From an uncultured Methanosarcinaceae archaeon (GTDB lineage: Archaea > Halobacteriota > Methanosarcinia > Methanosarcinales > Methanosarcinaceae), in contig CAVSHT010000011.1 in the NCBI GenBank assembly GCA_963727895.1, forward strand, positions 256,001 to 320,000: a stretch of 64,000 bases of DNA. Direction: 5' to 3'. Both the position numbers and the translations under genes were made by a program. This document shows, in pieces, positions 7,926 through 22,707 of this stretch (position 1 is its first letter; every line of letters begins with the position of its first letter). The notes beneath the pieces are model-generated. The model was not told the DNA's origin. It saw nothing but the letters and a program-made list of their open reading frames with translations, and ran no database searches.

Positions 7926-8762
7926 GAGTTATCCGAAAAGTATTGTTACCTATTGTAATTTTTAGAGACTTTTTATTATTTTTGATATTTATTACATATA
8001 TAAAACAGAAGATAATTCACTGCTTCAAAATCTGTCTACACAAATTGATTTTTAAAAAACACAAAAAATTCGTGGGAAGAATGAATTGAATTAATAAAAA
8101 ACCTTATTCTTTTCTGATGAACGCAACAATTGAATAAAAACGAAATTCGTATATAGTCTTTCGTAATATGTAAAACTGATTTTTATAAGTAGGTATTGAG
8201 GAGGGAGTAATTCCCCCCTCTTTGTGCACTAACACAATCCGTTTTTTAAGCACATTGAGTAAAGTATTCGCATATCTCGTTTTTTAGTACTATAAAAGTT
8301 TTACTCAATCGTTTGAGTTAGACGTTTGTTTTTAAAGCTAGTGTCATATGACTTAGCTTTAGTGACTGATCTATTGTATCATAGTATATATACTTATTTA
8401 TATTTGTTATTTTTTATGTTAATACTTTTTATATTTGATTACTGCGCTAGTTTTTGCCTGATTCATGGGTAATTTGATCTGGATCGCTTGGACAGTCGCA
8501 ATTAAAAAAGGATTATCTGTGTAAAGTCAGAAAACAGTAAGTCGCTTAGAGAAATATCAGTATTTTTCTCAGGTTTATGTACCTGAACTGAGAAATAGTA
8601 ACAAATATTAAAATGTTCGTATTTGATATAGAATATCTAAAAATTGAGAGAAAAATAAGTGATTTTTCTTTTAAAATACGAACATTATAGGTCAAAACGT
8701 TCGTGTATCAAAGTGCCCCGTAAAATTAGATTTTAGCATGAAAGTACATGAGGAGATTATCC

Positions 8763-10027
8763 TCACGTGCTCTCCTGATCCTTTTTCCCCATAATCGCAA
8801 ATATTTCACTAATTATTTTAATCCGTTCATCAACCGAAAAAATCTCAGTTTCAATAATCTTTCTCTTTTGGATTTCTCCCTTTTGATATCCGGTTTCATC
8901 TTCGTCCATCTCATCATTTGTAATAAGATGCCATAGTATCGTTGCAATTTTCCTTGCTAAGGCAATAATTGCTTTTGCATGTCCAATCGACTTCTTTTTT
9001 CTGTTAAAAAACTCTTTTAACCTGCTATTCTTCTTTCTTGCTGCTGCTTGAGCAATCTGTGTCAGAATCCACCTTGCTACTTTTGATCCCCTCTTTGTGA
9101 TTCTGCCGTTATAGTATTTATCTGCAGATTGATACACATTAGGAACTAGACCAAGCCAAGAAGCAAGCTTATTTCCAGAAGAAAAATCCTTAAAGTTGCC
9201 TATTTCAGCAAGTAAAATTGCCGCACCAAGTTCCCCTATACTTGGAACTGACATTAAAATCTCCATTTCTCGCTTATGATTTCGAGAAGCATAATTAAAA
9301 ATTTCTGTTTCTAAAGCTTCGAGTTCATCATCAAGACTTTTTATGAGTATCAGACAGATCTGAAGTCTAAATGCAGCACTTTGAGAAATTTCTCGATCAA
9401 GAATTTCTCTTATCTGAGCAGCTTTTTTCCGAACATTTGGAGAGAGGCTTGCAATAATCTGATCAACACTCTTACCTGAAGAGATTCCTAATAAGATCAT
9501 TCTGCCATTCTTGCCAAAAACGTCTGTCAGCACATTATTCAGGTGTAGCATTTCAGATGCAAAAATTGAATTTCAGATGCAAGAATTGAGTGAGCTTTAT
9601 TTTTTAAATCTGTTCTTTTTTGTACAAGTGTTAACCGAAGTAGAACATATGATCTAAAATCTATATGATCCTTTGGAAAAACTCTTGATGGCTGAATCAT
9701 ATTATTAAGTGCAAGTTGTGCAATGACTTCTGAGTCAATCTTATATGTTTTTGTATGGGTAAATACCTTCATATCTCGCGCATTTCCAACTATCACAGTT
9801 AGATGCTTTACCAATGAATCATGAATCGGAACCCAAAAGTCGCTGGTTGATTCACATGCAACAACATCACATTTTTCTGATATTACCCAATTTTTAAGGG
9901 CTAAAATTCCTTCATCATCTCTGTTGAAGCGTTGCTGTTGTTTTTCACCAGATCTACTGAAAATTGTAGCAATGAAAAAGAGTTTGTGAATGTCTAAACC
10001 ACAAGCTTTGTTTATGACTTCAATCAA
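8763..10027 (-). pseudogene. IS110 DEDD recombinase/transposase, frameshifted
   Basis: CGLDIHK, ACESTSDFW, C-terminal LASWLGLVPNVYQSA and GRITKRGS. A 20-bp tandem duplication at 9550-9589 breaks the frame. The KTD motif reads KTY. Confidence 0.92.
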
Positions 10028-10029
10028 AT

Positions 10030-10217
10030 TAGATCACCAAATTTATTTGGGCAGTGGAATTGCCTAAAAGGCCAATTTAGCATCCGTGATCAAAGTCACA
10101 CTTGAGCCTTCGATGGCAATTCACTGATTAGTTTTAGGACGGTTTTGAAAAACCAAAATCGAGACAACCTTACTGCCCAAGGTAATGAGGGCTTAATAGT
10201 CAAAAAAAGAACGGAGA
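10030..10217 (-). ncRNA. Candidate IS110 bridge RNA in the upstream non-coding end
   Basis: Nested inverted repeats 10047-10055/10172-10180, 10052-10064/10115-10126, 10068-10072/10106-10110, 10086-10099 and 10141-10154, directly upstream of an IS110 recombinase. Confidence 0.6.
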
Positions 10218-10261
10218 GTACTTTCATTAGTTGTGCTTGTTATTCAAAGAATATCATGTGC

Positions 10262-10593
10262 GTTTTAGGGGTAAGTCACGTTTCTGTCCAAAGATGGATA
10301 AAGAAATTTGGTCAGGAGTTAGAGGACCTAAAAATTGAAGAAAAAAGATATTGGAGAAGTGATGACAGATCACTAGAGAGCATATGCAGAGTTTCTTCCA
10401 GAAAAGAGTCATACTCAATCAAAAGCAGAAACATTTACAGTTGAGGGATATAACAGCATATTGAGGTATTTTCTGGCAAGGTTGAGAAGAAAGACAAAGT
10501 GTTATACAAAAAGTCTTGAAATGCTAAAGTACTCGGTTATTCTATTGATGAAATACAGAAATAAAGAACTAGATATAGTTAAGTAACAATGCC
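10262..10593 (+). mobile_element. IS1-family remnant, 5'-truncated with an internal deletion
   Basis: Near-identical to the other IS1 copies; ends in GTAACAATGCC; about 165 bp missing at ~10335. Confidence 0.9.
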
Positions 10594-10616
10594 GAATATT
10601 TTAATATTGGCATCTT

Positions 10617-10668
10617 ACTGCGGGCAGCTTGCAAGCTTCAGAATTAGGTTTCTAATCCTGCCCGCAGT
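10617..10668. terminator. GC-rich stem-loop downstream of the small heat-shock gene
   Basis: Perfect 11-bp inverted repeat ACTGCGGGCAG / CTGCCCGCAGT enclosing two small hairpins. Confidence 0.45.
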
Positions 10669-10770
10669 GTTTTGTTAACTCTGAACGTTTTTAATGTTGA
10701 ATTTATCCTAAATTCAGATTTTCTAGACTATCTATATGATAATGGACATATTCGTCTTCTGAACGCTGGT

Positions 10771-11229
10771 TTACTCAATCTGAATCTTTTTACTGGTTAT
10801 AGATTTCGTTTTAGGCAGCGTAACAGTTAAGACCCCATTTTTGAGCTGTGCAGTTGCACCTTCTTCGGTTACGCCATCGGGAAGAGGAATTTCACGGTAA
10901 TAGCGCATGAAAGATCTCTCTTTTCTGAGATAACCTTCTTTTTCGGTCTCTTCTTCGTTTCCTTTTCCTGCACTAATCACCAGAACATTATCTTTTAGAT
11001 CGAGCTCAACGTTTTCCTTGTCAACCCCAGGAAGATCAGTTGTCACAATAACTTTATCGTCTTCTTCCGCAACATCGGTTAGCGGAGAAAAAGTATCTGT
11101 TCCAAATCGGCTTTCCATTGTAGGGAAAGGTCTGAACATCTGTTCCATATAATTCTGCATTCTTCTGATCTCATCAAACGGGTCCCAGTTATACATCTCA
11201 CGATCTGTTCTTTTTATTGGAAATTTCAT
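10771..11229 (-). CDS. Small heat shock protein Hsp20/alpha-crystallin
   Basis: DLPGVDKENV, YLRKERS, AQLKNGVLTVTLPK. Confidence 0.96.
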   Translation of the reverse strand: MKFPIKRTDREMYNWDPFDEIRRMQNYMEQMFRPFPTMESRFGTDTFSPLTDVAEEDDKVIVTTDLPGVDKENVELDLKDNVLVISAGKGNEEETEKEGYLRKERSFMRYYREIPLPDGVTEEGATAQLKNGVLTVTLPKTKSITSKKIQIE

Positions 11230-21023: not shown

Positions 21024-21967
21024 TTACGCACTTGAAGTACGAAAAAATGATTTTATTGACGTTAAGTTTTCTCTTGTCACTTTCCAACAGTATTCTGTTG
21101 GGTTCCTATCTGGAGTAGCTGGAGGGAAAAATATTATTTTCAACCAATGCTTATTATTTTGATAAAATTCCTTTGCCTTTGCTGATCTATGCCATGTAGC
21201 TCTGTCCAGTAAAAGAAATATCCTTGCCCCTATATCTCTTTGAAACTTGATTAATGATTTTAAGTAAGAGTCTGTATTCTGTGTAATTCCTAAATCATAC
21301 CAATAAAACTCTCCATTTTCAGTGTACAATCCTCCAATATTGATTTTTGCTTTTGAACCACTTGTAAATTTAATAGGTTTTGAGCCCTTTATTGCCCAAC
21401 ATCTTGATCTATTTGAATCCACACAAAAATTACTTTCATCATGGGTAACGAATAAATGATTAGGGTTTAGTAATCTGTTTTTTGGACTTCTCTTATGAAT
21501 TATTTTTTAAGCACCTCATTTCTTCTTTTAGATTGAGGTCGACATGTGATTTTTCTCAACCCTAAATTTTTTAAAATTTGTCTCATTCTTGATTTGGAAT
21601 AAGATACTCCAAATTTTTCCTTGACAAATTGAACTGCATCTTTTGTTTGCCAACCACGAGAATAAACATCATCTGTTGGTATAGGTTCTAAAAATGCCTC
21701 TCTTAACTCAGATAATTGTTCTGCAATTAAAAAAGACTTGATTCCTCGACCAGGTTTACATTTAAGGCTAAACAAACCGTCGGTTTCAGCTCGTTTTATC
21801 CAGCGATGAACAGTTGAACGGTGAACTGAAAAATCGTCGGCAGCTTTAGCAGGACTCAAACCATTTTTGACCAATAATAAGGCTTGAAGTTTAATCTGCT
21901 CGTTTTTGTTACAGGAATTTATGATAGCTGTAGAAATATCAAAAGTTGTAAATGTTTCCAAACTCAT
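21024..21967 (-). pseudogene. IS630-family transposase, disrupted
   Basis: HTH ORF A; DES, LLDRATWH and PDRNPTEYCW in ORF B. TAA at 21500-21502 precedes an A6 frameshift site at ~21478-21483. Confidence 0.88.
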
Positions 21968-22028: not shown

Positions 22029-22707
22029 ATGTCCAGTCACAATGTCCAGTCACAAAAAAATGATATAGTTGGTGGGCGTCAACGCTATAAATGCCATGAT
22101 TGTGGATATAACTACACAGTAGAGCTAAAATCAACTGCTTTTTCCACTTCTGTAAAAAGACAGGCTTTACAACTCTATCTTGAAGGATTGGGCTTTCGCT
22201 CAATAGGACGATTTTAGGGGTGAGTCATGTTTCTGTCCAAAGATGGATAAAGAAATTTGGTCAAGAGTTAGAGGCTCTAAAAAGTGAAAATGAAATATCT
22301 ATTGTTGAAATGGATGAGATGCATACTTACATTGGTAACAAAAAAATATTGCTGGATCTGGATTGCTGTTGATAGAGTTGGGAAAAAGTTCATCAACTGC
22401 TCTTTTGGTAGCAGAGGAACGGAACCTGGAAAACTACTCTGGGAAAAATGGAAGAAAAAAGAGATTGGAGAAGTGATGACAGATCACTGGAGAGCATATG
22501 CAGAGTTTCTTCCTGAAAAGAGTCATACTCAATCAAAAGCAGAAACATTTACAGTTGAGGGATATAACAGCATATTGAGGCACTTTCTAGCGAGATTGAG
22601 AAGAAAGACAAAGTGTTATACGAAGAGTATTGAAATGCTAAAGTACTCGGTTCTTCTATTGATGAAATACAAAAATAAAGAACTGGATATATTTAGTTAA
22701 CAATGCC
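22029..22707 (+). mobile_element. IS1-family element, 5'-truncated, insA frameshifted
   Basis: GRQRYKCHDCG zinc ribbon, EMDEMH, TDHWRAY; right end TTAACAATGCC; 13-bp tandem duplication 22029-22054 at the broken left end. Confidence 0.9.

Follow-up and report, generated by a model that had tools for sequence, protein, structure and literature searches.

The 64,000-nt stretch analysed here (the window) comes from an uncultured Methanosarcinaceae archaeon. At positions 8732-10265, on the minus strand, it holds an interrupted recombinase gene, a structured non-coding region upstream of it, and two ends that share a subterminal inverted repeat. Comparison with other copies and relatives makes it very likely that an IS110-family insertion sequence (IS) of a Methanosarcina-type methanogen is present here in a non-autonomous copy that carries its own candidate guide RNA. 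As the element is on the minus strand, its left end is at high and its right end at low window coordinates.

The recombinase and the ends of the element

Two overlapping frames of 262 and 162 amino acids occupy 8763-10027 of the minus strand. An earlier inspection of the letters (the sequence-only reading) had recognised an IS110-family element, which matches to PF01548, PF02371 and NF033542 bear out. The N-terminal DEDD/RuvC-like domain and the C-terminal Transposase_20 domain of the family are both present. An intact relative scored 282.8 bits with NF033542 ("IS110 family RNA-guided transposase"; cut-off 140) and matched the IS621 recombinase structure 8wt6 with an E value of 1.8e-11, and the serine of the GLVPNVYQSA stretch (SA rather than SG) lined up with the serine of the YESG motif in IS621. 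In other species the relatives' recombinase genes are unbroken, with 414-416 amino acids. In the window the frame is split by a 20-bp tandem duplication; of 24 genome copies examined, 20 have two units and 4 have one. The extra unit was absent from relatives' contigs in all four of the RNA-library runs examined as contigs, out of 24 runs, each with small shares (0.06-0.08). Because so many copies share the frameshifting duplication, the defective form must itself have multiplied, either in trans or working as two polypeptides. Such sharing suggests that a defective derivative was mobilised in trans and spread, and the near identity of the copies suggests that the spread was recent.

The region was matched 33 times in the genome, which is 84% complete; about 22 of these matches are nearly full length (92-100% identity), and there are at least 24 copies of the element. 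On the window-right side, the shared sequence of 23 of the 24 copies extended 38-42 nt past 10226-10230, to ...GCGTTTTAG / CATGTGCGTTTTAG (window 10268), and the flanks diverged only beyond the equivalent of 10268. The exception, at C8:142565, is interrupted there by other DNA. On the window-left side, T(T)TAG followed by CATGAAAGTAC was observed in 23 of 24 copies. Ten relatives' elements (80.6-83% identity) were alignable across the same span, and loose ends of relatives' contigs clustered at 8732/8739 and at 10265-10267. The window-left end given by the sequence-only reading was therefore right within 2 nt but its window-right end was wrong, by about 35 bp, and other copies end elsewhere on that side only. 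The TTAG it placed at both junctions is present, at 8733-8736 and 10227-10230, but the second is internal and the core appears to be AAA, so neither the circle junction nor the empty site (TTAGATT-TTAG-TTGTGC) that it predicted holds. The 10-bp inverted repeat it described (8738-8747 versus 10218-10227) is perfect. The non-coding region lies upstream of the recombinase gene as it had said, but is 241 nt long instead of about 200; 28 nt (8735-8762) lie downstream.

The interrupted copy (G000:C8:141075-142565) is truncated at the equivalent of window 10230 by GGTTCCGTTGCAAAAAATATCTGC..., the reverse complement of which flanks another copy (G000:C4:52545-54013). The truncating sequence is probably the end of another mobile element.

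Most copies sit within an IS1-family element of about 750 bp. With about 229 copies, this abundant element is the main target in this genome: its left half plus the A-run was matched at 229 sites, and the left end of the IS110-family element follows 11 of 234 similar IS1 hits. The best-matching target site lies in the helix-turn-helix coding part of the IS1-family element. Empty IS1 sites read CCCCT-AAAA-CTCTTCC or CCCCT-AAAAA-TCGTCC. (They were searched for with the left half alone, as most IS1 copies hold other variants.) In occupied sites the left junction invariably has four A's, and the right junction has one A fewer than the empty site. What an occupied site has beyond an empty one is the element together with one AAA, and insertion is site-specific without target duplication. 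Since the left junction always has four A's and the right one n-1, the donor would carry AAA. A donor junction CATGCT-AAA-CGCAC, with strand exchange inside the AAA, would fit these counts. The CT next to the core is target DNA at the left junction and element DNA at the right junction. These origins were assigned because the two differ in relatives, where each is matched by a different guide. Positions 10266-10268 (reverse complement CTA) are likewise target-derived, as relatives differ there and each is matched by its own left-target guide.

The left end contains an invariant AAAC-N4-ATGA motif. Across the family the subterminal repeat is 9-10 bp long and consists of ATGAAA plus three or four covarying letters. 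These variable letters agreed between the two end copies in 153 of 270 cases versus 98 when shuffled (0 of 2000 shuffles as high), a count with a slight upward bias because the best right-end candidate was taken where there were several. RNAalifold predicted no structure from the left-end alignment, and the terminal hairpin was tested as a named structure instead: its 10 pairs were formed in 77.6% of cells, with 45 compensatory cells, against 0 of 500 shuffles and 23-37% in slid controls.

The predicted upstream RNA and its candidate guide segments

Relatives were searched for in one genome per species, which gave 309, and the best 80 of the 309 loci were kept. Their recombinases are 47-85% identical, and by record titles they come from Methanosarcina, Methanolobus, Methanoregula, Methanospirillum, Methanoculleus, Methanogenium, Methanolinea and Methanocalculus. 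Among the named sources are Methanosarcina hadiensis TD41E1-1, with 5 loci, and Methanosarcina sp. T3, with 2. Seven loci (L066, L078, L079, L081, L084, L118 and L125) are contigs of only 1.4-3.2 kb that bear the methanogen element with 54-82% protein identity, under the binning labels Cloacimonadales, Oricola, Ignavibacteriaceae, Bacteroidales, Clostridiales and Deltaproteobacteria; wrong binning is a more probable cause of this than transfer.

The RNA alignment comprised 46 distinct upstream sequences from several methanogen orders, on which a named structure was tested. The RNA has the same sense as the recombinase and contains two internal-loop modules, the target loop and the donor loop. 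Its 6 helices have 32 pairs, and 95.5% of the 1,467 cells were paired, whereas slid controls with partners shifted by 1-3 columns paired in 30-48% of cells. Twelve pairs showed compensatory change on both sides (98 cells), and 0 of 500 shuffles reached the observed pairing or covariation score. The closing helix GGGCAG/CUGCCC changes to GGGUAG/CUACCC and GGACAG/CUGUCC, and GUGA/UCAC of the donor-loop hairpin changes to GCGA/UCGC and GUGU/ACAC. A U-G pair at columns 89/105 is invariant (46/46) and many G-U cells occur in helices P2 and P3. Because these would be A-C on the other strand, the strand transcribed would be that of the recombinase. The RNAalifold fold of the same alignment (20 pairs, with a local GCC/GGC hairpin) was dropped, as the long-range helices P2-P4 count better. 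In Methanosarcina sp. KYL-1 (L090:950-1179), about 90 nt are inserted within the loop of the target-loop hairpin.

A covariance model built from this alignment found the RNA in 11 of 151 genomes across the phylum, representing 7 of 62 genera. It gave 21 matches in this genome, scoring 151-158 bits, and also found the RNA upstream of recombinases that are only 39-46% identical (28.8-40 bits). Members from Methanosarcina have a T run 30 nt and a TATTAA 20 nt before the closing helix, both absent in members from Methanomicrobiales; this arrangement would fit an archaeal TATA box. The GGUGAUC before the start codon is presumably complementary to the 3' end of 16S rRNA.

Matches of the loops to DNA were counted over 79 distinct insertion events with 36 guide types, using 2000 permutations. 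The reverse complement of the right-target guide agreed with the cognate right flank in 234 of 380 comparisons (permuted 0.36; 0/2000), or 124 of 181 with per-type consensus (0/2000), and the agreement dropped away from the core, from 62/68 at +1 to 27/68 at +5. The left-target guide (letters 5' of the A-run) agreed with the left flank in 94 of 137 comparisons (permuted 0.29; 0/2000), and in 62 of 84 with per-type consensus (0/2000). For the donor guide, the last three variable letters matched the element's right end perfectly in 66 of 69 events, compared with a non-cognate mean of 1.24 of 3. Whether the pre-core letters of the element are CT, CC, GG, TA, AC, TT or AGG, the donor guide of that lineage repeats them. 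Within the window, ATGCTAAA is present both at 10076-10083 and at 8732-8739, and CCTAAAAC both at 10131-10138 and at 10262-10269. Their chance expectations are 5.25 and 2.84 per 128 kb, and about 0.01 and 0.005 per 241-nt strand. These results support the proposal of the sequence-only reading that a structured upstream RNA has loops matching its own donor end and targets. Its TTAGCAT (10077-10083) is a real part of the donor guide, at or near a hairpin and covarying with the element end, and its AAAATC (10155-10160) is a real part of a target guide, adjoining a hairpin and covarying with the flanks in relatives. Its third segment, TTAGTT (10128-10133), is present but belongs to a helix and linker that do not vary (AAACUAAYC) and is not a guide. 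Displaced from it by 3 nt is the actual left-target guide, GTTTTAGG (10131-10138), which reads CCUAAAAC as RNA.

Individual relatives illustrate the agreement. In L134 the guide is UCUGUAAAAC and the flank TCTGTAAAAC, with GTAAAG versus GTAAAG for the other pair; the corresponding sequences are GUUGUCAAAC and GTTGTCAAAC in L079, and GAUGAAAAC and GATGAAAAC in L127. Distant RNA subfamilies (L042:2658-2795, L043:1322-1459, L150 and L149) have cores other than AAA, either CAG-like or GA-like. In the L042/L043 subfamily (39-46% recombinase identity), which was outside the training set of the model, the guide CACAGAGUC faces the junction CCACAGAGTCGG, and AUACCAG faces CATACCAG. Matches in divergent members were read by eye without counts, and some of their genomes may be species already in the relatives set. 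In L042/L043 the 3' strand of the target loop matches four letters past the core, into the element's left end, an extended match that might serve the bottom strand in the manner of a handshake guide.

The features are listed in Table 1. GUGUG/AUGUG near the donor hairpin was considered as a right-donor guide and rejected, being part of a covarying stem.

Table 1. Features of the element copy and its flank in window coordinates (strand ".", none assigned)
Feature	Position	Strand	Basis
Insertion-sequence body, donor-derived, 1,528 bp plus one AAA core	8735..10262	-	24 ends on each side, from copies in the genome; 10 relatives' elements
Core AAA (putative) at right-end junction (TTT on + strand)	8732..8734	-	A counts in occupied and empty IS1 sites
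Core AAA (putative) at left-end junction	10263..10265	-	A counts in occupied and empty IS1 sites
Subterminal inverted repeat, right-end copy, ATGAAAGTAC, 3 nt (GCT) from core	8738..8747	.	perfect 10-bp repeat
Subterminal inverted repeat, inner (left-end) copy, GTACTTTCAT, 41 nt from core	10218..10227	.	perfect 10-bp repeat
Left-end terminal hairpin/palindrome (CATGATATTC TTT GAATAACAAG), within the 41-nt extension	10236..10258	-	named-structure test
Candidate guide RNA (bridge/seek RNA), 130 nt, closing helix GGGCAG to CUGCCC	10049..10178	-	alignment, structure test, covariance model
Right-target guide (candidate), target loop 5' strand, GUCUCGAUUUU, complementary to top strand AAAATCGAG	10155..10165 (columns 21-32)	-	right-flank matches
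Target-loop hairpin GGUUUU UC AAAACC	10141..10154	-	all 4 pairs with compensatory change; 98.9% of cells paired
Left-target guide (candidate), target loop 3' strand, GUCCUAAAACU, identical to left-junction top strand CCTAAAAC	10130..10140 (columns 47-59)	-	left-flank matches
Donor loop 5' strand, only 5 nt (UCAAG)	10101..10105	-	no right-donor guide visible
Donor-loop hairpin UGUGA...UCACG	10085..10100	-	99.6% of cells paired
Left-donor guide (candidate), donor loop 3' strand, GAUGCUAAAUUG, identical to right end plus core ATGCTAAA	10073..10084	-	terminal-letter matches
Likely ribosome-binding site GGUGAUC, 4 nt before the TTG start	10032..10038	-	sequence reading
Recombinase fragment 1, 162 aa, RuvC-like DEDD domain, TTG start at 10027	9539..10027	-	PF01548 (DEDD_Tnp_IS110), E 1.1e-16
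Recombinase fragment 2, 262 aa, coiled coil and Tnp domain with GLVPNVYQSA	8763..9551	-	PF02371 (Transposase_20), E 7.3e-26
20-bp tandem duplication splitting the frame, 2 units (9550-9569, 9570-9589), 1 mismatch	9550..9589	.	genome copies
IS1-family remnant hosting the left end of the window copy (left target side)	10269..10608	+	genome copies; PF03400 on an intact copy

Proposed mechanism and alternatives

We propose that the left-target and right-target guides of the target loop would read the insertion site, while the left-donor guide would read the element's right end and core. The left end would be recognised otherwise, through the AAAC-N4-ATGA motif, the terminal hairpin and the covarying subterminal repeat. 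With the RNA bound to it, a DEDD/serine recombinase provided in trans would then exchange strands inside the AAA core and join a circle ...GTACTTTCATGCT-AAA-CGCACATG... to CCTA-AAA-(A)TCG targets, leaving no target duplication. The expected circle junction has the form ...GTACTTTCATGC(C/T)-AAA-CGCACATG... (CATGC(T/C)-AAA-CGCAC).

Several points weigh against this reading. The right-donor guide was not found: a search by mutual information between the RNA columns and the four variable letters after AAAC, over 42 types, found no column that tracks them beyond clade signal, although a weak signal could escape. The four-guide scheme of IS621 is for this reason not reproduced, and the outcome agrees with the doubt that the sequence-only reading had voiced about a second donor guide. 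The right-flank positions +4 to +6 match in only about half of the cases. Where A's make up most of the left-target guide, its specificity is weak (only 47 of 72 matches at position -1), and the targets are A/T-rich. The flanks were parsed by regular expressions, with a few rows mis-parsed, and the guide types are mutually related, so the permutations overstate their independence. Folding of the single window sequence was not significant (z -0.82; 37 of 200 shuffles fold as well), so support for the structure comes from the relatives and not from the window copy alone. No Rfam 15 family reached its gathering score at 8000-11000 (E up to 10); the sole match, to sraA (22.4 bits versus 56), is at 8139-8230, outside the element. 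The recombinase of the window copy is frameshifted, and among 21 copies checked in this incomplete genome the full 414-aa frame was absent, the longest being 390 aa. Support for the guide RNA is entirely comparative.

One alternative takes the upstream structure for a cis-acting leader in the recombinase mRNA, affecting translation or stability; the protein alone would then read ends and targets, and the loop matches would be by-products. The structure does stop 21 nt short of the start codon and 10 nt short of the likely ribosome-binding site, and the left end holds conserved motifs of a protein-binding type (ATGA, hairpin and inverted repeat). The RNA-library contigs show no separate transcript either. 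In all four runs relatives' contigs span the whole element, but strand, starts and ends are not deducible from them, and DNA is possible in such libraries; the circle-junction joint was not seen in these four contig sets, which carries no weight. A leader would leave unexplained why three loop strands covary with the flanks and right end of each lineage (0/2000), and why the helices are kept while the loop letters are free, and we regard it as very improbable. It is also improbable, in our view, that the RNA seeks targets only, in the seekRNA sense, with a second module that does not guide the donor and that matches the right end by reading the flanked inserted element at excision. Short seekRNAs that match the target alone are reported to suffice, and flanking target to be needed for circle formation (PMC11187229), and just one donor strand is matched here. 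The covarying letters of the second module, however, are the element's own termini (CT, CC, GG, TA or AC before the core) and not target, with the near-perfect agreement given above.

The model of the sequence-only reading, an element of 8737-10226 with a TTAG core and the target guides TTAGTT and AAAATC, has TTAG at both places and an abutting inverted repeat in its favour. It retains a negligible chance, because nearly all copies run on past its window-right end, relatives keep that stretch inside the element, and TTAGTT lies in invariant columns (58-63). Current activity is a separate matter. The family may be a fossil in this genome, with decaying copies left by a past spread and with RNA and recombinase now inactive; the shared frameshifting duplication, the many copies with stops and the best frame of 390 aa are consistent with this. 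The copies are 96-99% identical, however, and the 21 RNA modules score alike. An intact copy may also be unassembled, given the genome's completeness, and relatives retain intact genes of 414-416 aa. We consider a fossil family rather unlikely, yet a serious contender. The guide-RNA reading is the one we retain for the element as a whole.

Known systems and the insertion neighbourhood

Bacterial elements were the source of the bridge and seek RNAs described in 2024, for which two layouts are recognised (Durrant 2024, PMC11208160; Hiraizumi 2024, PMC11208158; Siddiquee 2024, PMC11187229). In the RNA of IS621 a stem is followed by the left guide, for the bottom strand, then a stem-loop and the right guide, for the top strand; there are four guides, and the core is CT (PMC11208158). 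IS1111-family elements have 11-13-bp repeats, extensions of 7 bp on the left and 3 bp on the right, and a downstream RNA whose top-strand match is 5' of the bottom-strand match, whereas the IS110 type has the opposite match order and an upstream RNA (PMC11187229). The methanogen element resembles the IS621/IS110 group (PMC11208160, PMC11208158) in its DEDD and serine recombinase, its left-end RNA in a long non-coding region upstream of the gene, its two internal-loop modules (each stem, guide, stem-loop, guide) and the absence of target duplication. As in IS621, a left guide would pair with the bottom strand and a right guide with the top strand, the two overlapping at the core. Unlike in IS621, the top-strand guide comes first (5'), which reverses the guide order, a right-donor guide is missing and the core appears to be AAA instead of CT. 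The element also has a covarying 10-bp subterminal repeat, where the IS110 group has none or one of 2-3 bp, and a 41-nt terminal extension with a hairpin. Its recombinase has 414-416 instead of 326-341 aa, and the likeness to that of IS621 goes no further than the E value given above.

The subterminal repeats, the right extension of about 3 nt and the 5' top-strand match are shared with the IS1111 seekRNA elements ISEc11, ISPa11 and ISKpn4 (PMC11187229). In contrast to these, the RNA is upstream and not downstream, the left extension is 41 nt and not 7, the repeat is 9-10 bp and not 11-13, and the transposase has 414 aa and not 330-350, with 23% identity to IS4321. The mixed architecture proposed by the sequence-only reading (inverted repeats with an upstream RNA) holds more strongly than claimed, since the guide order is IS1111-like too. 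ISEc21, of the IS110 type, also has an upstream RNA and targets a conserved coding stretch of another IS transposase gene (IS3 there, IS1 here), but differs in guide order and has no long inverted repeat (PMC11187229). The exceptions ISMtsp17, ISHvo10 and ISAcp5 are named there as IS1111-like with a non-coding region upstream or on both sides (PMC11187229), which by description resembles the layout here. ISMac14, ISMba7, ISMba20 and ISMma5 of Methanosarcina are among the IS110 elements in the supplements of PMC11208160. In full-text searches no paper came up that joins bridge RNA or seekRNA with methanogens, and this family may occur in the supplementary data of PMC11208160 beyond the part covered.

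Pairwise likeness to IS4321 (E 6e-13), IS5708 (32% over 175 aa) and IS621 does not place the recombinase, and the element is therefore assigned to the broad IS110 family but to neither of its subgroups. A bolder and rather unlikely proposal is that the methanogen lineage represents a third architectural class, with an upstream three-guide RNA, the IS1111 guide order, a 3-nt core and subterminal-repeat pairing, possibly together with the left-end hairpin, in place of the right-donor guide. If so, the subterminal inverted repeats of the IS1111 type would be nucleic-acid guides and not protein sites. On the guide-RNA reading itself, the recognised layouts would not be tied together, and RNA position, guide order, inverted repeats and guide number could recombine. 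The spread over several methanogen orders would offer a natural retargeting series, and the element a compact test case of a donor end read with a single guide. It might also be a source of recombinases for methanogen genetic tools. Insertion into an abundant IS1 and inversions between copies would help to explain rearrangements in IS-rich Methanosarcina genomes.

Among 20 paired copies, IS1 sequence flanks both sides in 10, the left-target side only in 4 (the window copy included), the right-target side only in 3 and neither side in 3. The window copy with its flanks (8603-10608) has IS1 on one side only, and an inverted copy 35 kb off on the same contig (G000:C11:229055-230583) has it on the other side only. 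A single inversion between them would account for both one-sided flanks. A paralogous repeat (C3:51572-51740) contains both non-IS1 halves in order. Searching 59 genomes of the genus gave no clean empty site for the window-left flank, because the flank (8603-8731) is itself a repeat. This repeat is about 130 nt long with an internal hairpin (ACGAACATT...AACGTTCGT), has several copies in the genome and is present in 18 of the 59 genomes, the source genome included.

The IS1 remnant beside the window copy lacks about 157 bp, as the BLAST pieces stop at 10339 and resume at 10330, positions that are about 157 bp apart in other copies. An intact IS1 copy extends over 22029-22700 of the window, marked by a PF03400 match at 22284-22700. 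It is adjoined by a frame of 155 aa (21500-21967) with Pfam matches to HTH_23, HTH_33, HTH_29 and HTH_32, which is probably the front part of another transposase.

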